Both the position numbers and the translations under genes were made by a program. The notes under the pieces are model-generated. The model was not told the DNA's origin and searched no databases. It saw only the letters and a program-made list of their open reading frames with translations. This document shows positions 24,196 through 49,168 of a DNA stretch of 64,000 nt, piece after piece (position 1 is the first letter of the stretch; the number at the start of each line of letters is the position of its first letter). The DNA comes from an uncultured virus (IMG/VR IMGVR_UViG_3300033066_001794). Taxonomy: Duplodnaviria; Heunggongvirae; Uroviricota; Caudoviricetes. The stretch is from IMG/VR virus record IMGVR_UViG_3300033066_001794; one strand, given 5' to 3'.

Positions 24196-24433
24196 TTCTC
24201 GTTTTATCCTTTTGGATAATGAGTTTTTAAGGAAGGTATGTAAGACTCGGCTTTCGAATGCCGAATTCTCCACTAAATCTTTAGATTTATCCTGTTAAAA
24301 TATATGGGGATTAGCGGTTTTGATTGCATAATGGATGTAAGAATTAGAGGGTACAAAGTCTTAACTGACAATAATTTAAAACTAGCTGCTTAATCTTCCC
24401 TAGTGGGGAACATTCTCAGCCCTCGAAAGAGGT
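24196..24433 (+). ncRNA. ssrA: circularly permuted (two-piece) tmRNA
   Basis: T-arm + 3' acceptor ATTCTCC-A (to 24272) lies upstream of 5' acceptor GGGGATT (24306); G3-U70; TTGCATA/TATGTAA helix; tag 24367-24393 DNNLKLAA*; outer ends approximate. Confidence 0.85.
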
Positions 24434-24440
24434 TCAAAAG

Positions 24441-24471
24441 AAACCTGAAGCTTAATTGTTTCAGGTTTTTT
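24441..24471 (+). terminator. intrinsic terminator after tmRNA
   Basis: AAACCTGAAGC-TTAATT-GTTTCAGGTTT + T run. Confidence 0.85.
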
Positions 24472-25969: not shown

Positions 25970-26002
25970 TTTGCATTTACAAAAATAATAGTTGTATATT
26001 TG
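25970..26002 (+). promoter_or_regulatory. Bacteroidota-type promoter for tRNA operon 1
   Basis: TTTG (25970) ... TATATTTG (25995-26002). Confidence 0.75.
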
Positions 26003-26043
26003 CATCTCATTACTACATGGTGTGGTAATAAATAATAAAAATC

Positions 26044-26154
26044 ATGACACGCAGAAACATTATAGTTAGAAATATGTGGATTGAACGCACGGGCGATAAG
26101 GCGTGTATTCATGGGGCTTCTGTTTATGGTTTAATTACAATCATGGGATTATAA
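26044..26154 (+). CDS. leader peptide 1 (MTRRNIIVRNMWIERTGDKACIHGASVYGLITIMGL)
   Basis: Manual translation; between promoter and terminator; codon content matches cluster 1 tRNAs. Confidence 0.8.
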   Translation: MTRRNIIVRNMWIERTGDKACIHGASVYGLITIMGL

Positions 26155-26177
26155 TAAAAACATAAAAATACAAACGG

Positions 26178-26207
26178 AAGCCTCAACCTAAAAAGTTGGG
26201 GCTTTTT
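26178..26207 (+). terminator. attenuator terminator 1
   Basis: AAGCCTCAAC/GTTGGGGCTT + T run; alternative pairing 26113-26125 with 26172-26184. Confidence 0.85.
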
Positions 26208-26214
26208 GTTTTAC

Positions 26215-26226
26215 GTTCTTTGAAAA
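26215..26226 (+). promoter_or_regulatory. boxA-like motif (also at 27236, 27854, 28590, 39550, 39754, 41668)
   Basis: GTTCTTT(G/A)AA repeated in tRNA-operon leaders and spacers. Confidence 0.65.
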
Positions 26227-26312
26227 TATGTATTGAGCTAATAGTGTTATTCGAATTATTTGCTTTGTTTATTTTTTTTGTTAACTTTACATTTCAAATA
26301 ATTATTAAAAAA

Positions 26313-27020
26313 ATGGGTGTTAATAGAAAAATAACAATTGAGCAATCAAATTTTGCTAAAAAAATGATTAAAGAAGGATTTACGTATATGCAAATATCGG
26401 AAGAATTAAATCTTACATGGGGATTGATAAAAAATCATTTGAATAGAGAAGGATACTACTCTGAAAACTTGAAAAGGAAAATTATTGAGTGTCTAAATTG
26501 TGGAAATTCTATTAGTAATATTGATTTTATTAATGGTAAACGTGTTGTAAGAACTAAATTTTGTAATAATTCTTGTTCAGCTTCATTTTCTAATAAATTT
26601 AGAATCAGAAATAAAAAAAAAGAAAAGCCGAAATGCGTGAATTGTGAGGGTGAGTGTAAAACTAATTTTACAAAATATTGTTCTGTTATTTGTCACTCTG
26701 ATTACAGGAATAAAAAATTAATTGAAAGGATAAATAATAATGATACAGATGGATTGAGCGATGTTGTATTAAAGAGAATTATGATATTAATGTATGGTGA
26801 AAAGTGTATGAAGTGTGGTTGGAACGAAATAAATGAGACAACAAAAAAAGTTCCAATTGAACTAAATCACAAAGATGGAAATTCTAAAAATAATAATTCT
26901 CATAATGTTGAATTAATTTGCCCGAATTGTCATTCATTAACACCAAATTATAAAGCTTTAAATAAAGGTAATGGAAGACATAGTAGAAGACAAAGAGCAA
27001 GAGATGGTAAGTCATATTAG
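26313..27020 (+). CDS. HNH endonuclease with Zn-finger repeats (likely start MGVNRK)
   Basis: CMKCG..IELNHKDGNSKNNNSHNVELICPNCH. Confidence 0.85.
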   Translation: MGVNRKITIEQSNFAKKMIKEGFTYMQISEELNLTWGLIKNHLNREGYYSENLKRKIIECLNCGNSISNIDFINGKRVVRTKFCNNSCSASFSNKFRIRNKKKEKPKCVNCEGECKTNFTKYCSVICHSDYRNKKLIERINNNDTDGLSDVVLKRIMILMYGEKCMKCGWNEINETTKKVPIELNHKDGNSKNNNSHNVELICPNCHSLTPNYKALNKGNGRHSRRQRARDGKSY

Positions 27021-27091
27021 CCGTAATAGTTTAGTCGGTAAAACAATAGATTTGTAATCTATATTCGAGGGTTCGATTCCTTCTCACGGCT
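27020..27091 (+). tRNA. tRNA-Thr(TGT)
   Basis: Cloverleaf; ATAGA-TTTGTAA-TCTAT; GTTCGATTC. Confidence 0.9.
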
Positions 27092-27154
27092 CAAAAAGAT
27101 TCCTCCCCATAAAAGCAGATATAGTGCGGGGACTTGCAGCAAGGAATCTTATAT

Positions 27155-27227
27155 TGCAATATAGCTCAGGTGGTAGAGCGTTTGGTTCATATCCAAAATG
27201 TCGAAAGTTCGAATCTTTCTATTGCGA
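27155..27227 (+). tRNA. tRNA-Met(CAT), probably elongator
   Basis: TTTGG-TTCATAT-CCAAA. Confidence 0.85.
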
Positions 27228-27280
27228 CAGTTTTAGTTCTTTGAAATATTAAAAATATCATTCGGGTTTTCCTGAATTGA

Positions 27281-27591
27281 TTAGAATGAGTTACCTGTGA
27301 GTGTCATTGAGAAAAAGGGGCTTCGAGCCTTGACATGATGAAATAGAAACTCTATGAAAAAAATAAATGAATGTAGCCGAAAAACAGGACTGCTCCAAAT
27401 TTGGATGAAACTAAAATTGTCTATAACTTAGATGAGCAGAGGTTTCAGGGCGGAACAAGACCGAAAAGCGCAAAACCTTTTCTTCGTTGGAGGCTATACG
27501 ATTTTATTTTGGAAGTGGAGAAACACTTTTGGAAATCCTTCCTGTGCGGTTGGAGAAAACGCAAAGAAGCACACATGCGTTCTCATTTTTA
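27281..27591 (+). ncRNA. candidate ~310-nt structured RNA, family unknown
   Basis: Closing AGAATGAG/CTCATTTT and many nested stems; GC-richer than flanks. Confidence 0.55.
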
Positions 27592-27601
27592 AGTATTAAA
27601 T

Positions 27602-27674
27602 TGGAAATTAGCTCATTTGGTAGAGCAGCACCCTGATAAGGTGCAGGTGTCAAGTTCGAAACTTGAATTTCCAA
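27602..27674 (+). tRNA. tRNA-Ile(GAT)
   Basis: GCACC-CTGATAA-GGTGC. Confidence 0.92.
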
Positions 27675-27688
27675 CGTTAAAAATATAG

Positions 27689-27763
27689 TGCGGGATAGAG
27701 CAGGGTTAGCTCGTTGGGTTCATATCCCAAAGGTCGGGTGTTAGAGTCACCCTCCCGCTACCA
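27689..27763 (+). tRNA. tRNA-fMet(CAT)
   Basis: 1:72 mismatch, three G-C pairs in anticodon stem, encoded CCA. Confidence 0.88.
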
Positions 27764-27775
27764 ATTGAAAAAAAA

Positions 27776-27847
27776 GTATAGATGGCTGAGTGGCTAAGCA
27801 CTTCACTGTTAATGAAGGTTACAGAGGTTCGAACCCTTTTCTATACG
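27776..27847 (+). tRNA. tRNA-Asn(GTT)
   Basis: CTTCA-CTGTTAA-TGAAG. Confidence 0.9.
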
Positions 27848-27872
27848 CAAATAGTTCTTTAAAATAAAAAAT

Positions 27873-27947
27873 AGTTATGTAGTTCAGCTCGGTTAGAATG
27901 CTACCCTGTCACGGTAGAGGTCGTGGGTTCGAGTCCCATCATAACTG
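27873..27947 (+). tRNA. tRNA-Asp(GTC)
   Basis: CTACC-CTGTCAC-GGTAG. Confidence 0.93.
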
Positions 27948-27957
27948 CAAAAAAAAC

Positions 27958-28042
27958 GCAAGTGCTAATACAATGGAGAGATGGATAGACTCCAAATCTG
28001 TTGCCCGAAAGGGATGTGTAGGTTCGACTCCTGCCGCTTGTG
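27958..28042 (+). tRNA. tRNA-Trp(CCA) with long variable arm
   Basis: ATAGA-CTCCAAA-TCTGT; variable region TGCCCGAAAGGGATGT. Confidence 0.8.
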
Positions 28043-28150
28043 CAAAAGAGTGTGATTTAATAATAGGCTCAAAGCCTTGCTGAAGCGGTGTTCAGTGTAG
28101 GAAGTTAGCTTTAAATTATGCTCTTAAAATATTAATTATTAAATTTGTAA

Positions 28151-28459
28151 ATGGAGTTAGGTAAAATCGAATTTTGCAGAATAGGTCAGAAGCAAAGATG
28201 TGGCACTACAAAATGTGAATGGAAAAAAGCTTTCAATCACTATTGTTGGCTCAGAGAACCTGAAGTGAAAAAATGTGAAGGAAACATTCATAGCGAAGAA
28301 AAGAAACCATTAGTTAAAAAGAGAAAAGGAAGAGTAGTAAAAGAAGAATTAAAGTACACAGAAATAAAACCTCACAAAGAAATTAAAGAGGTTGAATTTG
28401 AAAATAAATTTAAAACAGCATCCACTGATAATTGGATTAAAAAAATAAAAACATTATGA
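28151..28459 (+). CDS. hypothetical basic protein in tRNA cluster
   Basis: ORF track. Confidence 0.55.
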   Translation: MELGKIEFCRIGQKQRCGTTKCEWKKAFNHYCWLREPEVKKCEGNIHSEEKKPLVKKRKGRVVKEELKYTEIKPHKEIKEVEFENKFKTASTDNWIKKIKTL

Positions 28460-28507
28460 AAACAAAATTAGAAAAAATGGAATCAGACGAACCTTTTGAG
28501 ATTAAAT

Positions 28508-28579
28508 GCTCGGTTCGTCTAAGAGTAAGGACGTACTCCTTTCAAGGGTAAAATACGGTGGCAGAACCCGTACCGAGTA
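28508..28579 (+). tRNA. tRNA-Glu(TTC), atypical T-loop
   Basis: TACTC-CTTTCAA-GGGTA; acceptor GCTCGGT/ACCGAGT. Confidence 0.8.
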
Positions 28580-28609
28580 CAATTATTTAGTTCTTTGAAA
28601 ATATAAAAA

Positions 28610-28774
28610 TTGGTTATTAGTAACTCAGCACCCTAAGTGCAATAATTGATAAGCTACACAAATTTTTTGTGGTTAGAATTATCCGCAACTTAGATTAGTG
28701 AAAACTAAAATAAAGCGAGGGATTAATTATGTGGGAGGCGGCATAACTCCTAGAAAGCTGAAGCTGATAACCAA
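28610..28774 (+). ncRNA. candidate ~165-nt multibranch RNA
   Basis: TTGGTTATTAG/CTGATAACCAA and TCAGC/GCTGA closing stems, four internal arms. Confidence 0.55.
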
Positions 28775-28777
28775 CAT

Positions 28778-28849
28778 GCGAAATTCGTATAGTGCTTATT
28801 ACACTTCACTTCCAATGAAGATACATCAGTTGAATTCTGATATTTCGCT
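28778..28849 (+). tRNA. tRNA-Gly(TCC)
   Basis: CTTCA-CTTCCAA-TGAAG. Confidence 0.85.
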
Positions 28850-28860
28850 CAAATAAAAAT

Positions 28861-28934
28861 GACCATGTAGCTAATGTTGGCTTTGGCACACGTCTGCAAA
28901 ACGTGAAACACCTGTTCAATTCAGGTCATGGTCT
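28861..28934 (+). tRNA. tRNA-Cys(GCA)
   Basis: CACGT-CTGCAAA-ACGTG; U73. Confidence 0.88.
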
Positions 28935-28991
28935 CGCTCGTTTGCCCGAAAGGGTTTGTGTGGAGATAGCTACGAAGCATAACAAGAACGA

Positions 28992-29061
28992 TTGGCAGTG
29001 GTGTACGTTGCACGATGGGCGCATAACCCATAGGAGATTGTGTTGAATTCCTTCCTGCTGA
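28992..29061 (+). pseudogene. degenerate tRNA-like element with CAT anticodon arm
   Basis: ATGGG-CGCATAA-CCCAT, poor T arm. Confidence 0.45.
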
Positions 29062-29090
29062 AACTTATTGATTAATAAAAAAAAGTAAAA

Positions 29091-29129
29091 ATGAACAGAA
29101 GAGTAAAATACGAATATGGTTGTTGTTAG
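29091..29129 (+). CDS. 12-aa uORF MNRRVKYEYGCC
   Basis: Paralog at 29360-29398. Confidence 0.55.
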   Translation: MNRRVKYEYGCC

Positions 29130-29150
29130 GTAAACTAACAATTATACCAA

Positions 29151-29357
29151 ATGAAAAAATCAAAAGAATTAAAAAATCTTGTTGACCCAAGAGCTTACAG
29201 ATTATTAACTACCATTGACCAAGACCCTTACAGAGAAGAGTGTTGGAGTACACATCGAGCAGGTGGTACATTTAAGTGGAAGAAAAAAAGATTATACAAA
29301 TTTCAATACAGAATGTATAGAACTTGGAAGTATAACAGAAAAACTAAATACAAGTAA
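29151..29357 (+). CDS. small basic protein (..WKYNRKTKYK)
   Basis: ORF track; C-terminus similar to 29416-29586. Confidence 0.7.
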   Translation: MKKSKELKNLVDPRAYRLLTTIDQDPYREECWSTHRAGGTFKWKKKRLYKFQYRMYRTWKYNRKTKYK

Positions 29358-29359
29358 AA

Positions 29360-29398
29360 ATGAACAGGAGATGTAAATACGAATTTGGCTGCGGTTAG
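29360..29398 (+). CDS. 12-aa uORF MNRRCKYEFGCG
   Basis: Paralog of 29091-29129 with synonymous differences. Confidence 0.55.
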   Translation: MNRRCKYEFGCG

Positions 29399-29415
29399 TT
29401 TAAAAACTAATCGAA

Positions 29416-29586
29416 ATGAAACCAAAAAAAACAATGAGTGAAACTGTTGATAGTTCAACTTTTAAAAAGGTTTATTACATGATGGTATGTGATTGTCCGA
29501 AATGTCCTCCAAATAAAGGATGTAACAAAAACAGAAAAAAGTATCAAAAGAATTGGAAAAAATTTAGAAGCACAAAATGGAAGTAA
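29416..29586 (+). CDS. 56-aa basic Cys-rich protein (not in ORF track)
   Basis: MKPKKTMSETVDSSTFKKVYYMMVCDCPKCPPNKGCN..NWKKFRSTKWK. Confidence 0.65.
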   Translation: MKPKKTMSETVDSSTFKKVYYMMVCDCPKCPPNKGCNKNRKKYQKNWKKFRSTKWK

Positions 29587-29666
29587 AAAATAAAAATAGA
29601 AAAGCGCATAGATTCAAACTATAAGCCATTAGCTAAGCTTCGCTAGTGGTGATAACCTTGAAAGCT

Positions 29667-29912
29667 ATGAAGAATTTAAGTCGTGCCTATAACAGGTACA
29701 AACAAGAAACAAAATTTAAAAGACGTGTTAAAAATTGGTTCGCTCATCCATCTTGGAATGACGAAAAAGAAATTAAGAAAGCATTAACAGGAAATGGTTA
29801 TACTTTTTTAAAAACAACAAGCAGACCTTGTAATTGTTTTATGTGCAGCGGTGATAATAAATACAAGCGCACACAGAAGAATAAAGTCATAAGAGATGCA
29901 TTGAGAGAATAA
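29667..29912 (+). CDS. small basic protein with PCxCxMC motif
   Basis: LKTTSRPCNCFMCS; likely start MKNLSRA. Confidence 0.6.
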   Translation: MKNLSRAYNRYKQETKFKRRVKNWFAHPSWNDEKEIKKALTGNGYTFLKTTSRPCNCFMCSGDNKYKRTQKNKVIRDALRE

Positions 29913-29921
29913 TATTAATTA

Positions 29922-29994
29922 GTTCCTTTAGCTCAGGGGTAGAAGCATTCGGCTCATAACCGACAGGTCACTTGTTCGATTCAAGTAGGGAACA
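29922..29994 (+). tRNA. tRNA-Ile2(CAT, lysidine type) or Met
   Basis: TCGG-CTCATAA-CCGA and acceptor resemble bacterial Ile2. Confidence 0.8.
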
Positions 29995-30086
29995 CGACTA
30001 GGTTACAAAGTGTATGAGTAAGTAACATGGGTATTGTGGTAACGTAGTATTGGCGCACATGGTTGACAATAACACTCATACATAAA

Positions 30087-30161
30087 GGGGCATTGGCTGA
30101 GATAGGCGATGGCGATTCATTTGCAATGAATAAAACGGGGATTCAAGTTCCTCATGCTCCA
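30087..30161 (+). tRNA. tRNA-Ala(TGC)
   Basis: G3-U70; ATTCA-TTTGCAA-TGAAT. Confidence 0.88.
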
Positions 30162-30171
30162 CAAAAAATAT

Positions 30172-30247
30172 TGGGATATAGCTTAGCTCGGTCTAAAGCA
30201 GTAGTATTACAAACTACCTATCGTTGGTTCAAATCCATCTATCCCAA
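30172..30247 (+). tRNA. tRNA-Val(TAC)
   Basis: GTAGT-ATTACAA-ACTAC. Confidence 0.85.
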
Positions 30248-30275
30248 CTTAAATAAAAAAAATATAAAAAAACCA

Positions 30276-30338
30276 ATGTTAGTTACTAGAAACATAAAAT
30301 CTTTATCTTCTTTTTTGCGAAAGCGAAAGAGTAAGTAA
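30276..30338 (+). CDS. 20-aa micro-ORF MLVTRNIKSLSSFLRKRKSK
   Basis: Paralog at 30447-30509; A-rich upstream. Confidence 0.5.
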   Translation: MLVTRNIKSLSSFLRKRKSK

Positions 30339-30348
30339 TTATTTATAT

Positions 30349-30425
30349 GCGTCAGTAGCTCAGTTGGTAGATGCACCTCACTTTTAATGAGGGGGTCGGG
30401 AGTTCGAGTCTCCCCTGTCGCACCA
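30349..30425 (+). tRNA. tRNA-Lys(TTT)
   Basis: CCTCA-CTTTTAA-TGAGG; encoded CCA. Confidence 0.93.
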
Positions 30426-30446
30426 CTTTTAATGTAAAAAAAATAA

Positions 30447-30509
30447 ATGTTAACTACAAGGCACATAAGAACTTTCATCACTTCTCGCAGATTGCGAAGA
30501 GGTAGATGA
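30447..30509 (+). CDS. 20-aa micro-ORF MLTTRHIRTFITSRRLRRGR
   Basis: Paralog of 30276-30338. Confidence 0.5.
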   Translation: MLTTRHIRTFITSRRLRRGR

Positions 30510-30515
30510 TTGTAT

Positions 30516-30606
30516 GTTCCCGTAGCATAAATGGATAATGCACAAAACTTCTAATTTTGCTTTCTTTTTAAGAATCATGCAGGTTCGAATCCTGTCGGGA
30601 ATTCCA
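30516..30606 (+). tRNA. tRNA-Arg(TCT) with long variable arm
   Basis: CAAAA-CTTCTAA-TTTTG; variable region CTTTCTTTTTAAGAATCAT; CCA. Confidence 0.85.
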
Positions 30607-30608
30607 AA

Positions 30609-30682
30609 CTTTCAGTAGCTCAAATGGATAGAGCATCGCACTACGAATGCGAAGGTTGAGTGTTCGAGTCATTCCTGAAAGA
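30609..30682 (+). tRNA. tRNA-Arg(ACG)
   Basis: TCGCA-CTACGAA-TGCGA. Confidence 0.9.
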
Positions 30683-30777
30683 CTTATTTTATATGTTAAT
30701 AACTTTTTTACTTGTAATATCAAAAATGTTATTATATTTGCATTCAGTCAATACGGTCAAATTAAATCAAATTATTA

Positions 30778-39321: not shown

Positions 39322-39409
39322 TTTTATTTCGCTCATTTTCAATTTAATATGATTTTAATTAAAAATAAATTTTGCGGATAAATAAATAATCCTTTACTTT
39401 GCATCCATT

Positions 39410-39478
39410 ATGAAAAATTTATCACTACATAGTTCGTTGTATCTAAGCCCAAAAGGTTCAGGTGACTTTCTATTGTAG
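39410..39478 (+). CDS. leader peptide 2 (MKNLSLHSSLYLSPKGSGDFLL)
   Basis: Follows TTTG..TTACTTTGC promoter-like motif; codons match cluster 2 tRNAs. Confidence 0.8.
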   Translation: MKNLSLHSSLYLSPKGSGDFLL

Positions 39479-39504
39479 TTAAACATATTTGTTTACATGA
39501 TAAG

Positions 39505-39534
39505 AACCCTGAACTGAAAAGTTTGGGGTTTTTT
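39505..39534 (+). terminator. attenuator terminator 2
   Basis: AACCCTGAAC/GTTTGGGGTT + TTTT; GGTTCAGG (39455) can sequester the left arm. Confidence 0.85.
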
Positions 39535-39566
39535 GTTTTACATTAATTCGTTCTTTAAAAATATAT

Positions 39567-39654
39567 GGTGAATGTGCGTGAGTGGTCGAAACGAGTAGAT
39601 TGTGGTTCTACTGATATGTAAATATCCACGAGGGTTCAAATCCCTTCATTTACC
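39567..39654 (+). tRNA. tRNA-His(GTG) with long variable arm
   Basis: G-1/C73; GTAGA-TTGTGGT-TCTAC; GATAT-GTAA-ATATC arm. Confidence 0.85.
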
Positions 39655-39659
39655 CAAAA

Positions 39660-39743
39660 GGAGAGTAAACCTATCAGGGTAGGCGCAACCTGCTAAGTTG
39701 TCGGCTCGGTTAAACGAGTGTGGGTCACGACCACTGCTCTCCG
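39660..39743 (+). tRNA. tRNA-Ser(GCT)
   Basis: GCAAC-CTGCTAA-GTTGT; long arm; G73. Confidence 0.8.
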
Positions 39744-39769
39744 CAAAAAAAAAGTTCTTTAAATAAATT

Positions 39770-39852
39770 GGAAGGAGGCGACCATTGGTGGTCAACAAGA
39801 CTTGAAATCTTGAGCGGTCAGAAATGACAGGGTTCGATTCCTACTCTTTCCG
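39770..39852 (+). tRNA. tRNA-Ser(TGA)
   Basis: CAAGA-CTTGAAA-TCTTG; long arm; G73. Confidence 0.85.
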
Positions 39853-39860
39853 CAATAAAC

Positions 39861-39944
39861 TGAGATACGCTAGAGTTGGAGAGCTAGGTTGGTCTGTAAA
39901 ACCAATGTCTTATGACTGATTCGGTTCGATTCCGAATATCTCAA
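39861..39944 (+). tRNA. tRNA-Tyr(GTA)
   Basis: TTGGT-CTGTAAA-ACCAA. Confidence 0.88.
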
Positions 39945-39949
39945 CAAAT

Positions 39950-40032
39950 ACCCGTATGGTGGAATGGAATACACATAGGTCTTAAAAACCTACGCCCTTT
40001 GAGGATTGCAAGTTCAAGTCTTGTTACGGGTA
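39950..40032 (+). tRNA. tRNA-Leu(TAA)
   Basis: TAGGT-CTTAAAA-ACCTA. Confidence 0.9.
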
Positions 40033-40047
40033 CTAAAAAAATAAAGA

Positions 40048-40398
40048 ATGAAAACATATAGAAAAAACAGAACCCAATGTGCTAAATTATTTAGTGTAAA
40101 CGGAATTTCAATGTTAGGTTTTTTAGTTGGAGAACAGGATAACAAACAAACTTTTGAAACATTAAAAGGAGAAAGAGTAAATGTATCTACTATTAAAAAC
40201 TCAGAAGGTAAAATAGAGGATATTGGCGATGAAATAGTTGAAATAACACTTGCTTATAAAAGAGTTACAAATACAAAAACAGGGATAATAACAACAACTC
40301 CATTTGGAAATGTTATAACTAAAAATAGTGTTGGAGGTAAAATTATGCGAACTCCGAAAGATGTTTTATGTACAAATAAATTAATTAAAGTCAATTAA
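40048..40398 (+). CDS. hypothetical protein in tRNA cluster 2
   Basis: ORF track. Confidence 0.6.
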   Translation: MKTYRKNRTQCAKLFSVNGISMLGFLVGEQDNKQTFETLKGERVNVSTIKNSEGKIEDIGDEIVEITLAYKRVTNTKTGIITTTPFGNVITKNSVGGKIMRTPKDVLCTNKLIKVN

Positions 40399-40408
40399 AA
40401 AAATATAT

Positions 40409-40489
40409 GCGAGCATGGTGGAATGGCAGACACACATGATTTAGAATCATGCGCAGAAATGCATGAGGTTTCGAGTACCTCTGCTCGTA
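40409..40489 (+). tRNA. tRNA-Leu(TAG)
   Basis: CATGA-TTTAGAA-TCATG. Confidence 0.88.
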
Positions 40490-40493
40490 CTTT

Positions 40494-41446: not shown

Positions 41447-41505
41447 TTAAAAAAATAATTGAAAATAAATTTGGTAGATTGAAAAACATTTCTTTACTTT
41501 GCATC

Positions 41506-41598
41506 ATGAAAACAACAAACGTATACTTTCAACAATTTTTCCCTCAACAACCGCAGTTTAGATTGCGATTGTCAGGAAGTTCTTGTCCGTGTGCGTGA
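41506..41598 (+). CDS. leader peptide 3 (MKTTNVYFQQFFPQQPQFRLRLSGSSCPCA)
   Basis: Directly after TTACTTTGC promoter-like motif; F/Q/P run matches cluster 3 tRNAs. Confidence 0.8.
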   Translation: MKTTNVYFQQFFPQQPQFRLRLSGSSCPCA

Positions 41599-41623
41599 GA
41601 AAATATATCACAAACAAACAATG

Positions 41624-41653
41624 AAGACCCTGACTAATTATCAGGGTTTTTTT
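41624..41653 (+). terminator. attenuator terminator 3
   Basis: AAGACCCTGA/TCAGGGTTTT + T run; GTCAGG..TCTT (41571-41584) can pair with the left arm. Confidence 0.85.
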
Positions 41654-41686
41654 ATGTTCAAAAAATAGTTCTTTAAAATAAAATAA

Positions 41687-41762
41687 CGCAATGTACGGAA
41701 GTTTGCTTTTTCCGACCAAGTTTGGGACTTGGGAAGCGCAGGTTGAAATCCTGCCATTGCGA
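41687..41762 (+). tRNA. tRNA-Pro(TGG)
   Basis: CCAAG-TTTGGGA-CTTGG. Confidence 0.85.
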
Positions 41763-41768
41763 CAACAT

Positions 41769-41841
41769 CAGGGTATATATCAATTGGTAGATTACTCGCT
41801 TTGGATGCGAGAGGTTGTAGATTCGAGTTCTGCTACCCTGA
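41769..41841 (+). tRNA. tRNA-Pro(TGG), second divergent copy
   Basis: CTCGC-TTTGGAT-GCGAG. Confidence 0.82.
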
Positions 41842-41889
41842 CTTAGGTAATAATAATTTAACAACAAACAATAGGCTGAAAAGCCTTAT

Positions 41890-41963
41890 GTGGTGGTAGC
41901 TGAGTTGGTTCAAGCGTCAGACTGAAAATCTGAAGTAGGTCGGTTCGATTCCGACACATCACA
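41890..41963 (+). tRNA. tRNA-Phe(GAA)
   Basis: TCAGA-CTGAAAA-TCTGA. Confidence 0.9.
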
Positions 41964-42009
41964 CTTGTTTTTTTTGTATATTTGTTTTCTGAAAATAAAA
42001 TATATGAAC

Positions 42010-42082
42010 TGCCTTATAGTGTAACTGGCAACACGCTTGATTTTGATTCAAGAGACTCTACGTTCGAGCCGTAGTGAGGCAA
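42010..42082 (+). tRNA. tRNA-Gln(TTG)
   Basis: CTTGA-TTTTGAT-TCAAG; U1-A72. Confidence 0.9.
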
Positions 42083-42114
42083 CTAATTAGTAGTAAATAA
42101 CATAAATTAATTGA

Positions 42115-46561: not shown

Positions 46562-48010
46562 TTACATATTTTGCTTGATGCGCTCACGAATTTCAGTTAG
46601 TGTAGTTTCATGAAGGATTTTTCCATCTTTGAATATAGTTTTCAATAAACCTGTTTTTTCTTCTTCATCAGTACATTGTTCTATTGTTATGTATTCGCTT
46701 CCTTCTTTTTTTAAATACATCAATCCTTTGTGAGACTTCTTTTTACTGTCAGTAATAGGGTCTTTTTCAATTTCTCTTTTTTCGCCATTTACTTCAACAT
46801 ACGTAGCTTTAATTGCAAATCCTAAAGTATCTCTACTGTGATTACGAAGTATTCCACCTACGCCAATTACTAAATTACTTGATGCGTAACCCATTTCCTT
46901 CAATCTATCTAAAGTCCTTATGTATCTTTCTAAGTACATTCCATCTCCGTATATAATTCCTACCTTTGGATTAATTACTTTATATCCTTTTTCATTTAAT
47001 GTAGAGCCAAACTTTTCATCTAAAAGTCTTATAGCTCCTTTCCATTCATTGCTGCCTATTTCAGCAGTAGGGTCTCCACATATTATGTATTCAGGATTTC
47101 CACTATCAGGTCTGAATACAGTCTTTCCATCACGAGATAATATTTCATCTTTAAGAATATCAGCGAATTCAGTTAAAACACGATATACATTAAAAGTATC
47201 TGAAACCATACTCACTATGCCGCTTGGATATAACTTTAACATGTTTTTAAATGAAGCTAATTCATCGTCTTTTCCAAATGAACAAACTACACTATGTTCA
47301 GATGCAGGTACACTGAACATTATTGGCTCATCTATTTTTGCATGATAGTATTTTAACATAAATGGTAAAGCAGGAACGGTGTCACTACCTAAAAATGAAA
47401 GTAGATGAGCTGCACCACTTATAGCCGCACCCTCTTCACTTCCATCGCCTCTATATCCAAAATCATGTACAGTGAAGTCTTTTAAAAACATCATATCCTC
47501 CGAAACTGTCTCTTTGAAATATTTATCTACAATACTTCTGTATTTAAGGCAGCATGAAGCTACAGTTATACTATACCAAAGCTTTAAAAGAAGGCTCTCA
47601 ACATAACCAACAGCCCAATGAAAATCAGGATGTGTACTCTGTATAGTCATCAATACATTTCTAACAGGCATGATTGTCCCTTCTTCAACTGCTTTAATCT
47701 CAATTGGGAAATAACCCAATTTACATAATGCACGAATTTGATGCTCCACTGCTTCTGAATTACTACCCAAAATAGCTTTTCTATATACTAGAAACTCTTC
47801 TCCCATTTCGGGTGTAATTTTAGTAGAAAGATATTCTTTTAAATAATATTGTAATCCGAAAAATAATGTTTTATCAAAAGTTTTGTCAGTACGTGCTATT
47901 AAGTATGAATATACTTTATTACAATTAGGAACATACTGTTCCATGTGTCCCATTTTATAAACGTCTAATGCTAATAATGGGTTCTCCTTTGTGTTTGATG
48001 CTGTTTTCAT
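46562..48010 (-). CDS. nadV: nicotinamide phosphoribosyltransferase-family enzyme (Nampt/Namat-like)
   Basis: DVYKMGH, HDFGYRG, VPASEHS, SDTF, RPDSG, GIIYGDG, KDPITD. Confidence 0.92.
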   Translation of the reverse strand: MKTASNTKENPLLALDVYKMGHMEQYVPNCNKVYSYLIARTDKTFDKTLFFGLQYYLKEYLSTKITPEMGEEFLVYRKAILGSNSEAVEHQIRALCKLGYFPIEIKAVEEGTIMPVRNVLMTIQSTHPDFHWAVGYVESLLLKLWYSITVASCCLKYRSIVDKYFKETVSEDMMFLKDFTVHDFGYRGDGSEEGAAISGAAHLLSFLGSDTVPALPFMLKYYHAKIDEPIMFSVPASEHSVVCSFGKDDELASFKNMLKLYPSGIVSMVSDTFNVYRVLTEFADILKDEILSRDGKTVFRPDSGNPEYIICGDPTAEIGSNEWKGAIRLLDEKFGSTLNEKGYKVINPKVGIIYGDGMYLERYIRTLDRLKEMGYASSNLVIGVGGILRNHSRDTLGFAIKATYVEVNGEKREIEKDPITDSKKKSHKGLMYLKKEGSEYITIEQCTDEEEKTGLLKTIFKDGKILHETTLTEIRERIKQNM

Positions 48011-48038
48011 TTTTATTGATTTAGGTAAAATATTTAAT

Positions 48039-48263
48039 TCAATAATCTTCAATGAACTTAAATCTATCTTCAACTGATGCTGTAAAGATAACGATATAAG
48101 CTCCTATTTCGTATGCTTTTTTTACTAAATCTATTGTCCTGTCAATATCTTTTTTATTGTCTAAAGTATGGTATGGATAAATAGTTGAATCAAAATCAAC
48201 GGCTAAAATTATCTTTCCGTGCGTTCTCCATTCAATAAGTAATCTTTGTGAGTAAATATTCAT
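48039..48263 (-). pseudogene. truncated HAD-family fragment
   Basis: ILAVDFDSTI motif I and IFTA motif II only; 74 aa. Confidence 0.5.
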
Positions 48264-48277
48264 ATTTCTATTTTTTA

Positions 48278-49168
48278 TTAAATATCAATTAATTCAACAA
48301 TAGGGATAACCTTTACAAATTCATTATCTACTTTTCCTATTGAATCTGTAGTGTAAACTCTTTCTATTCCACTTTCTTTTAATTTTGAAATATCAGCAGA
48401 ACCTTCGTAGTGGGAAACGATTAAATATATTTTACCTGCATTTCGTTTTTTTAATTCACTTGCAAGCCCCATGAACGTTCCACCTCTGCTACAAATATCG
48501 TCCACTAGTATAACTGAACGACCTTCTAAATCAGCTTTATCAACGGAGTAAGCTAAAATCTTCCCATCGTTTAGATTACGTGCCTTGTTACATATAACAA
48601 TATCATCTTTGTATCCTAATTCAGAAGCAAGTTTGAATATCTTTTTGAAAGCACCTCCGTCAACAGAAACTAGTAAAGGATTACCTCCAATATCTTCTAG
48701 GCATGTTTTTACAAAATCAACATTGCTTATTACATGGATGTTTTTCTCTAGTAATGTAGTTGATATTTCACTATGCGGGTCAAAAACAAATATTCTGTTA
48801 AAATCACATGATTTAAGCATGTCTGTGAATACTTTTAATGAGAATGGTTCTCCTTCTACCATAACTCTATCTTGTCTTGCATAAGGGAGGTATGGAATGA
48901 ATAAACTATTGTTCTTGTATCCCATTCTAACTAGAGCATCGTTTGTTAAGAGTATTCTCATAATATCATCAGAACTATTTGCACGAGCGAATATTGTTAC
49001 TTCATTTGATGGATATGCTATATTACCATTGTCGTTTAATTTAACATGAACCTCACCCCCTAAGAAGTTAAATGTTTCTGCTGATATTGAGTGATATGTT
49101 GCGATTTCGAATCTACTTTTAGGTGTACTGAAGTCAGGAAACCCATTTAGAAATAATACTGTTTTCAT
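48278..49168 (-). CDS. prs: ribose-phosphate pyrophosphokinase-family enzyme (Prs/Adps-like)
   Basis: PYLPYARQDR, DPHS, LVDDICSRGGTF. Confidence 0.9.
   Translation of the reverse strand: MKTVLFLNGFPDFSTPKSRFEIATYHSISAETFNFLGGEVHVKLNDNGNIAYPSNEVTIFARANSSDDIMRILLTNDALVRMGYKNNSLFIPYLPYARQDRVMVEGEPFSLKVFTDMLKSCDFNRIFVFDPHSEISTTLLEKNIHVISNVDFVKTCLEDIGGNPLLVSVDGGAFKKIFKLASELGYKDDIVICNKARNLNDGKILAYSVDKADLEGRSVILVDDICSRGGTFMGLASELKKRNAGKIYLIVSHYEGSADISKLKESGIERVYTTDSIGKVDNEFVKVIPIVELIDI

Follow-up and report, generated by a model that had tools for sequence, protein, structure and literature searches.

Leader modules and tRNA genes in the window

The DNA considered here is a stretch of 64,000 nucleotides (nt), hereafter the window, from the uncultured virus IMGVR_UViG_3300033066_001794 (Caudoviricetes), and its subject is L1, a short leader open reading frame (ORF) that lies, together with a terminator hairpin, ahead of a cluster of transfer RNA (tRNA) genes. 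The window has a G+C content of 26-34% and no close relative among GenBank phages, and is taken to be part of a large, AT-rich uncultured phage. When tRNA genes are called by ARAGORN and Rfam, ARAGORN finds 25 of them, all on the plus strand and falling into three groups. Judged from its sequence, L1 is one of three paralogous modules, each composed of a promoter-like site, a leader ORF and a terminator, with one module per tRNA sub-cluster; the other two leader ORFs are named L2 and L3. The anatomy of these modules, the statistics that tie leaders to tRNA sets and the conservation in relatives are direct observations.

A first-pass annotation of the window had read L1 as an attenuator whose codons cover the tRNAs of the first cluster. 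This reading is supported computationally by four lines of evidence, namely the three modules with leaders matched to their tRNA sets, the conservation of the modules in the viral contig G002, a different partition of tRNAs that is followed by the leaders of a second contig, G001, and a blind survey of further viral loci.

Codon content of the leader ORF

L1 begins with an ATG at 26044 and ends with a stop codon at 26152-26154. Its first 21 codons are exactly those that the first-pass annotation listed, and they translate into MTRRNIIVRNMWIERTGDKAC. The amino acids represented there are T, R, N, I, V, M, W, E, G, D, K, A and C, and those that belong to clusters 2 and 3 appear, as had been noted, for the first time at codon 23 (CAT, His), codon 22 being ATT. 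The claim that these codons cover the whole of cluster 1 stands for the amino acids, with 13/13 represented, and has to be relaxed at two points. The identity of one tRNA as Ile2 is unproven, since the three tRNAs with a CAT anticodon are called Met by ARAGORN and "Ile2" was an assumption, and Glu requires a tRNA-Glu-like gene, as no tRNA-Glu is called in the window by either ARAGORN or Rfam.

The candidate for this gene is a cloverleaf within cluster 1 (Table 1). In G002, its counterpart at the same cluster position (L126 2601-2676, minus strand) is called as tRNA-Glu(ttc); the two align, and their stems differ by paired changes. Its T-loop is atypical, with GGCAGAA in place of the usual TTCGA-type loop, which may explain why the callers miss it. 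Once this gene is counted, all of the first 21 codons of L1 belong to cluster 1 and a stray GAA codon is explained. On the same sequence evidence, the tRNAs of the phage would then serve all 20 amino acids.

The probability for 20 specified codons to be drawn entirely from the 13-amino-acid set and to include each of its 12 non-Met members is 2.3e-6, for a cut at codon 21 that was picked post hoc, with the data already seen. Against background amino-acid frequencies taken from 41 long ORFs of the window, the run of 21 has P=1.6e-3 and the coverage of 13/13 amino acids has P=0.01. In a six-frame scan of the window, the run of set codons at L1 reaches 26 when Glu and four in-frame codons before the ATG are counted. 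The peculiarity of L1 is the coverage of its set, not the length of its run.

A codon-by-codon match to the tRNAs had also been claimed. What remains of it is the match to amino-acid classes, whereas at the level of codons the agreement is no better than the general codon usage of the phage. Under strict wobble rules, 18/20 sensor codons of L1 are cognate (for GTT and GGC, the U34 tRNAs Val-TAC and Gly-TCC would have to read four ways), as are 10/10 in L2 and 10/11 in L3, where codon usage predicts 83-87%. The signal therefore sits in amino-acid classes and not in codon choice.

Candidate antiterminator and terminator

The pairing of 13 base pairs (bp) that the first-pass annotation proposed as an antiterminator holds between GGGGCTTCTGTTT at 26113 and AAACGGAAGCCTC at 26172, each of which occurs once. 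It includes two G-U pairs and extends to 14 bp if a U-A pair is added. The helix is present in the minimum free energy (MFE) fold of the whole leader, at -46.6 kcal/mol when folding starts from 26010 and -40.6 kcal/mol when it starts from the ATG. The arms of antiterminator and terminator overlap, and the two are mutually exclusive in the predicted folds.

The L1 duplex has an energy of -21.8 kcal/mol, compared with -9.5 +/- 2.0 kcal/mol in dinucleotide shuffles of the upstream part, 0/1000 of which reach it. In the other leaders, the shuffles that reach the energy of the leader's own duplex number 14/1000 for L2, 46/1000 for L3 and 0/1000 for G2_L1 and, among the leaders of G001, 7/1000 for G1_a, 141/1000 for G1_b and 4/1000 for G1_c. 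In folds computed up to the point before the 3' arm of the terminator emerges, 8/9 leaders pair the terminator 5' arm with the ORF segment just 3' of the sensor.

The influence of a translating ribosome was modelled by equilibrium MFE folding with a mask of 28 nt, placed by the codon in the A site. For L1, masks with the A site at codons 1-20 give folds without the terminator and those at codons 21-31 give folds with it, which is the expected direction. The L1 fold computed with no ribosome is the read-through form. For L2, L3 and G1_c, no switch was reproduced by equilibrium folding under such masks, and the approach was dropped for them.

Two further hairpins are predicted in the leader RNA (Table 1). 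The one inside the L1 ORF is possibly, according to the folding model, a pause hairpin. The one at the likely 5' end contains a mini-ORF, ATG GTG TGG TAA (26017-26028), which is kept in G002.

Three modules and their tRNA sets

All three modules have in common an upstream block, GAAAATAAATTTG ... TTTGCATC, and their promoter-like sites match what we take to be the Bacteroidota -33/-7 promoter consensus. L2 and L3 start 0-4 nt past the promoter-like motif and, from this spacing, may be leaderless. No Shine-Dalgarno sequence is found at the leader ORFs, and a Shine-Dalgarno-like word lies upstream of 1/79 window ORFs of at least 100 amino acids. The scarcity of such words and the motif TTTG-N21-TATATTTG fit Bacteroidota expression signals, which would make a member of that phylum the putative host. 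In simple scans of the window, promoter-like sites are no commoner than in shuffles, and terminator-like sites number 9 versus 6.8 +/- 2.4 in shuffles, a difference that is not significant.

L2 contains the run LSLHSSLYLS, with cluster 2 (His, Ser, Ser, Tyr, Leu, Leu) downstream, and L3 contains the run FQQFFPQQPQF, with cluster 3 (Pro, Pro, Phe, Gln) downstream. The run of 11 P/F/Q codons in L3 is the longest in six frames, that is, in 128,000 codon positions, the runner-up being 6. The run of 10 H/S/Y/L codons in L2 ranks second, one of 11 codons elsewhere in the window, made up solely of Tyr and Leu, being longer. Over whole ORFs, enrichment for the leader's own set amounts to 30/35 codons in L1 (P=0.015), 13/21 in L2 (P=4.9e-5) and 12/29 in L3 (P=3.3e-5), while each of the six cross pairings of a leader with another module's set gives P>0.3. 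The division of the amino acids among the three leaders mirrors that among the three tRNA groups, and the window is a clear case in which three modules share out the full amino-acid set.

A further motif, (C/A)GTTCTTTRAAAATA, lies 3' of all three terminators and of the Glu-like tRNA (26214-26229, 28589-28604, 39549-39564 and about 41664-41680). Possible interpretations are a processing site and a recombination boundary.

Conservation in related contigs

The close relative G002, a 169.7-kb viral contig (loci L126, L131 and L132), keeps all three modules. Its L1, MKRRNIIVENMWSENTGDKACTQGASVYCLITTMGV, has the length and frame of the window L1 and differs from it at 15 codons, which correspond to 9/36 replaced residues and 6 synonymous changes. 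Four of the replacements fall in codons 2-21, three of them staying within the cluster-1 set (K, E, N) and one leaving it (S). In the antiterminator there is one compensatory pair change, from T-A to G-C, and the outer pair of the in-ORF hairpin is A-U in the window and G-C in G002; as single events, these paired changes are weak evidence. In L2, the frame 3' of the sensor differs between the window and G002, yet the RNA arm GGTTCAGG is retained.

Four metagenome runs from four studies all contain the G002-like allele and add no independent covariation, and peptide-level patterns for L3 and L1 matched G002 only. The metagenome scan gave one locus, L133, with the leader MVRNTKHSKHFSSSSKWFTTIGVEMKLLCL before His and Tyr tRNAs, where the end of the contig precludes judging the match.

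G001 is a 71.7-kb contig (loci L017 and L120), likewise without a close relative among GenBank phages; a promoter-pattern scan of viral contigs listed at least 119 stretches, among which only L017/L110 (G001) proved informative. Its tRNAs share with those of the window only words of 7-18 nt, too short to serve as search patterns, and they are grouped differently. Behind the leader MKNNFTHTWQPTTQCPFGICEGLCICIKK come a terminator, an HNH ORF and then tRNAs for Pro, Cys, Thr, Phe, Trp, Gln, His and Arg-ACG, and 16/28 codons of this leader are from its own set (P=1.7e-4), with a run of 13. A second leader, MQSLNIIAMVKGNIEDRNSIGFVLSFCK, precedes Lys, Val, Arg-TCT, Asn, Met, Gly, Glu, Asp, an unassigned tRNA and Ile, with a run of 10 (P=0.03), and a third, MKNNKLYSSLSYLLQSKSRDYIV, precedes Leu, Leu, Ser and Ser (P=2e-3). 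The six cross pairings of G001 again give P>0.3 each. Since the leaders of G001 follow a different partition of tRNAs, the match is not a coincidence confined to a single lineage.

In G001 (L120 1296-1480), a single promoter-like site is followed by three tiny ORFs that overlap, the last of which is the first leader. The preceding ORFs encode MACGCGKPKPKPKK and a hydrophobic 25-mer, and the leader ATG overlaps the preceding stop.

Blind survey of viral loci

The survey covered 80 further viral loci, found through the HNH family of the ORF at 26313-27020, of which 78 have tRNA genes. It took as terminators those terminator-like hairpins that lie at most 1300 nt before a tRNA on the same strand (n=99), and as candidate leaders those ORFs that start with ATG, have 12-70 codons and end at most 110 nt ahead of the hairpin, which left 56 unique ORFs in 33 loci. 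For each of these, the tRNAs between its terminator and the next one served as the set for scoring.

A value of P<1e-3 was obtained with the own set in 5/56 ORFs, versus 31/3006 (1.0%) with the sets of other loci, and 0/2000 permutations reached five matches. The best case is MKNIRTNTATVATTTTAPVGGRPVRLRSGVLYLI, which stands before Pro, Ala, Thr, Gly, Val and Arg tRNAs (P=3e-10); another is MRYNRNIMVMAIVVAAAIIAEDVLT, before Val, Ile and Ala tRNAs (P=8e-5). Pairing between the terminator arm and the ORF was also tried as a discriminator of matching ORFs and was dropped, as it fails to separate them. In the crude form used in the survey, this structural criterion is weak.

tRNA clusters and genomic setting

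The features of the three modules and of the tRNA clusters are collected in Table 1. The attenuator-to-tRNA layout proposed in the first-pass annotation needs one amendment, in that an ORF for an HNH endonuclease intervenes before the first tRNA gene. Contigs from two metagenome studies leave the window sequence at 26225, one of them passing into sequence similar to the beginning of a tRNA gene. The HNH ORF therefore looks like an insertion that separates the attenuator from the tRNAs, and from these contigs it is probably one. The point of divergence lies directly past the (C/A)GTTCTTTRAAAATA motif. The HNH family is tied to tRNA clusters, as 78/80 viral loci with the family (L136-L215) also have tRNA genes, and in the listed loci it very often adjoins tRNA-Thr(TGT), as in the window. 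The protein is possibly a homing endonuclease that targets the tRNA-Thr(TGT) gene.

Table 1. Features of the leader modules and tRNA clusters in the window
Feature	Position	Strand	Remarks
Module 1 promoter-like site, TTTG-N21-TATATTTG	25970..26002	+	pattern match
8-bp hairpin at likely 5' end of leader RNA	26010..26028	+	predicted fold; present in G002
Leader ORF L1, 36 codons and stop, MTRRNIIVRNMWIERTGDKACIHGASVYGLITIMGL	26044..26154	+	same length and frame in G002
L1 sensor codons 2-21	26047..26106	+	with the ATG, all 13 cluster-1 amino acids covered, Glu included
Hairpin within L1 ORF, codons 13-23, made of GC-rich codons	26082..26111	+	predicted fold
Predicted antiterminator 5' arm, L1 codons 24-28	26113..26125	+	fold, pairing
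Predicted antiterminator 3' arm, overlapping terminator 5' arm	26172..26184	+	fold, pairing
Predicted intrinsic terminator, hairpin of 12 pairs with 7-nt loop, and T-run	26176..26212	+	hairpin to 26206; tail alone -15.8 kcal/mol
Motif CGTTCTTTGAAAATAT after terminator	26214..26229	+	also at 39549; one mismatch at 28589; variant after L3 terminator
HNH endonuclease ORF separating terminator and first tRNA	26313..27020	+	PHROGs matches
tRNA cluster 1	27020..30683	+	Thr, Met, Ile-GAT, Met (initiator-like), Asn, Asp, Trp, (Glu-like), Gly, Cys, Met, Ala, Val, Lys, Arg-TCT, Arg-ACG
tRNA-Glu(UUC)-like cloverleaf between Trp and Gly	28508..28580	+	fold z=-2.1; UUC at anticodon position
Module 2 promoter-like site	39361..39405	+	shared upstream block
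Leader ORF L2, MKNLSLHSSLYLSPKGSGDFLL	39410..39478	+	predicted antiterminator arm within 39455-39471
Module 2 predicted terminator	39502..39540	+	hairpin 39502-39533, then T-run
tRNA cluster 2	39568..40490	+	His, Ser-GCT, Ser-TGA, Tyr, Leu-TAA, Leu-TAG
Module 3 promoter-like site	41461..41505	+	shared upstream block
Leader ORF L3, MKTTNVYFQQFFPQQPQFRLRLSGSSCPCA	41506..41598	+	predicted antiterminator arm within 41572-41582
Module 3 predicted terminator	41623..41657	+	hairpin 41623-41651, then T-run
tRNA cluster 3	41687..42083	+	Pro, Pro, Phe, Gln

Several of the tRNAs are unusual. One of those with a CAT anticodon (27689-27763) looks initiator-like in sequence, with a GGG/CCC anticodon stem, a 1:72 mismatch and an encoded CCA. 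Three others are long for their class: tRNA-Trp with 86 nt (27958-28043), Arg-TCT with 91 nt (30516-30606) and His with 88 nt (39568-39655). Arg-TCT has a long extra stretch past the anticodon arm, and tRNA-Trp receives no Rfam tRNA call and scores there only as a weak match to tRNA-Sec.

Upstream of module 1, a permuted transfer-messenger RNA (tmRNA, RF04321) scores below threshold at 24223-24393 on the plus strand (40.8 bits versus a gathering threshold of 47, E=5.8e-7), with a strong terminator at 24438-24471, and the corresponding site of G002 (L126 7591-7877) has a tmRNA called by ARAGORN. The phage may thus carry its own tmRNA beside the tRNA genes. PHROGs matches in the window include HNH endonucleases, a ParB-like protein, a nicotinamide phosphoribosyltransferase and a ribose-phosphate pyrophosphokinase. 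The genes for the last two are adjacent (46562-49168, minus strand) and form a salvage pair for nicotinamide adenine dinucleotide (NAD); NAD salvage gene pairs are common in large phages.

Proposed mechanism

Several features of an attenuator come together at L1: a short ORF enriched for the set of the following tRNAs, a terminator before the tRNA genes, an antiterminator that excludes this terminator, and, directly upstream, a promoter-like site that matches the presumed consensus. From this arrangement, L1 is probably a ribosome-mediated leader-peptide attenuator that gates tRNA cluster 1 and raises tRNA transcription when decoding is slow. That the leader ORF is translated, where transcription starts, that a switch operates and in which direction it does so are points that we infer.

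In the proposed mechanism, transcription would begin near the promoter-like site at 26002 and the short ORF would be translated as the RNA polymerase proceeds. If all 13 classes are decoded fast, the ribosome would cover 26113-26125 and enter the loop. With this arm covered, 26172-26187 would pair locally with 26193-26206, and transcription would stop at the T-run. A ribosome waiting anywhere from codon 2 to about codon 20 for a scarce aminoacyl-tRNA would instead leave the 5' arm free to pair with 26172-26184. The antiterminator being formed, no terminator would arise and the polymerase would transcribe the HNH ORF and the tRNA genes as well. With the phage tRNAs so made, the leader would be decoded faster and the module would close again, in a negative feedback. 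Such a closed loop would keep the supply of tRNA in line with demand, individually for each of the three codon groups.

A number of observations weigh against this mechanism or are left unexplained by it. At the level of the leader codons, the codon match is expected anyway from the codon usage of the phage (86%), L1 taken over its whole length is only modestly enriched (P=0.015), and its run is barely the longest in six frames (26, versus 25 and 24 elsewhere). In G001, MQSLNIIAMVKGNIEDRNSIGFVLSFCK is unenriched over the whole ORF (P=0.33), and MKNNKLYSSLSYLLQSKSRDYIV has three Tyr codons, yet no tRNA-Tyr is found within the 12 kb examined. At the level of RNA structure, masking codons 32-37 of L1, stop included, restores the antiterminator in the MFE fold, because the stop lies 27 nt past the 5' arm. 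Termination under fast translation would consequently rest on kinetics or on a ribosome located in the 46-nt loop. At the other end of the sensor, a ribosome stalled at codons 18-21 would cover part of the 5' arm. For L2 and L3, the MFE fold contains the terminator under nearly every mask, the antiterminator appearing only before the 3' arm emerges, and L3 of G002 is the exception among the leaders in forming no antiterminator even in the fold made before that point. In the survey, MFE folds pair the terminator arm with the ORF in 6/9 matching and 17/41 non-matching ORFs. Finally, no terminator was detected after cluster 1 in the terminator scan, and the controlled unit may therefore continue into protein genes.

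Alternative explanations

The explanation that competes best keeps the attenuator and changes its signal. The leaders would then report general translation capacity or host amino-acid starvation, and the tRNAs would be switched on late in infection or under stress. Lack of an amino acid and lack of a tRNA look alike to a stalled ribosome, L1 with its 13 sampled amino acids is near to a general probe, and L1 without a ribosome adopts the read-through fold, all of which suit this explanation. A general probe, however, needs neither three disjoint leaders matched to their sets nor their re-partitioning in G001, it does not account for 12/12 cross pairings being unenriched, and extra tRNA gives no relief of amino-acid starvation. 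This signal is considered unlikely.

Less probable still is that the leader ORFs are there by chance, with promoter and terminator giving a short non-coding RNA or a constitutive end, and the tRNAs being transcribed from elsewhere. In favour of this, the leaders have no Shine-Dalgarno sequence, though this is true of all but 1/79 of the long ORFs; the run length of L1 is not unique, and the scans for promoter-like and terminator-like sites stay near the level of shuffles. Chance has difficulty, on the other hand, in producing a P/F/Q run of 11 where the next best in 128,000 codon positions is 6, own-set P values of 1e-4 to 1e-5 alongside null cross pairings, an L1 that keeps its length and frame in G002 across 15 codon differences, or a survey result that is reached in 0/2000 permutations.

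It is also highly improbable that the small ORFs encode peptides active in their own right, with a composition unrelated to regulation: their retention in G002 would be expected of such peptides, but L1 has 9/36 residues replaced there against 6 synonymous changes, the C-terminal frame of L2 differs while its RNA arm is retained, and the compositions of the leaders track the tRNA sets. Direct sensing of tRNAs by base pairing with an untranslated leader RNA, as in T-box leaders, which also couple tRNA status to the choice between antiterminator and terminator, is the least credible alternative, given that no T-box or other riboswitch family gives a match, whether at its threshold or below it, that one short RNA would need to read up to 13 tRNA classes, and that the signal has codon periodicity in one frame.

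Attenuation by a translated leader that responds to the supply of the tRNAs encoded downstream is thus retained as the preferred reading. With regard to why phages carry tRNA genes and how these are expressed, the fact that leaders and tRNA groups divide all 20 amino acids alike points to tRNA synthesis controlled by demand. A wider generalization, for and against which the chances appear evenly balanced, is that phages of Bacteroidota-type hosts run their tRNA supply by modular closed-loop circuits. In these, each tRNA sub-operon would have a translated "codon test strip" that gauges the speed at which the codons served by its own tRNAs are decoded and is rewritten as tRNA genes move between sub-operons, as a comparison of the window with G001 suggests. 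Host defences by which particular tRNAs are cut or depleted would be registered by such circuits as well, and met with the matching replacement set.

If the mechanism is true, the modules would allow the boundaries of tRNA operons in uncultured phages to be read from sequence, would act as a natural sensor for the decoding speed of particular codons, and would provide a testable link to host defences that target tRNAs. It would also mean that leader-peptide attenuation works with Bacteroidota-type signals and without Shine-Dalgarno sequences.

Comparison with known systems

The classical attenuators are those of the enterobacterial amino-acid operons (thr, ilv, trp, his, leu, pheA), where a leader peptide is encoded ahead of a competing antiterminator and terminator, and the position of the ribosome decides between them. 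The multivalent attenuators of thr and ilv come closest to L1, with a short ORF rich in the sensed codons, competing helices and more than one amino acid sensed. The differences are several. Amino-acid operon attenuators control genes for the synthesis or import of the sensed amino acid, whereas here an HNH ORF and phage tRNA genes lie downstream. Classical leaders have runs of one or two amino acids, and L1 samples up to 13, mostly once or twice each. L1 also lacks a clear anti-antiterminator (1:2) pairing, its stop codon lies well beyond the 5' arm, and the modules have Bacteroidota-type signals with no Shine-Dalgarno sequences. Among the Rfam leader families, Thr_leader (RF00506) reaches 27.6 bits at 26129-26210 and Phe_leader (RF01859) 20.6 bits, both below the gathering threshold of 55.

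Control over the decoding machinery itself is known from the pheST attenuator of Escherichia coli, whose leader peptide senses one amino acid and which controls phenylalanyl-tRNA synthetase. It resembles the modules in placing a component of the decoding machinery under an attenuator, and differs from them in being cellular, in controlling a synthetase and in sensing a single amino acid. T-box riboswitches share with the modules the setting of an antiterminator/terminator choice by tRNA status before genes of the translation apparatus. They bind one uncharged tRNA directly and without a ribosome, whereas the modules are proposed to be translated leaders; no T-box covariance model of Rfam matches the window leaders.

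A parallel to the leaders that start at or near the 5' end of the transcript, as L2 and L3 may do, is offered by mycobacteria, in which leaderless poly-Cys short ORFs reportedly act as cysteine-responsive attenuators (bioRxiv 10.1101/834739). These ORFs sense one amino acid and belong to cellular operons, not to tRNA genes.

In the open-access full texts covered by the literature search, no published leader-peptide attenuation of tRNA genes was found, and the accessible text of PMC2965389 has 0 occurrences of "tRNA gene" or "tRNA operon". The logic of control by demand is known for amino-acid operons and for one synthetase, with no tRNA-gene case in the literature searched. On the sequence evidence, it is likely that the modules described here extend leader-peptide attenuation, a known type of control, to the tRNA genes of phages.

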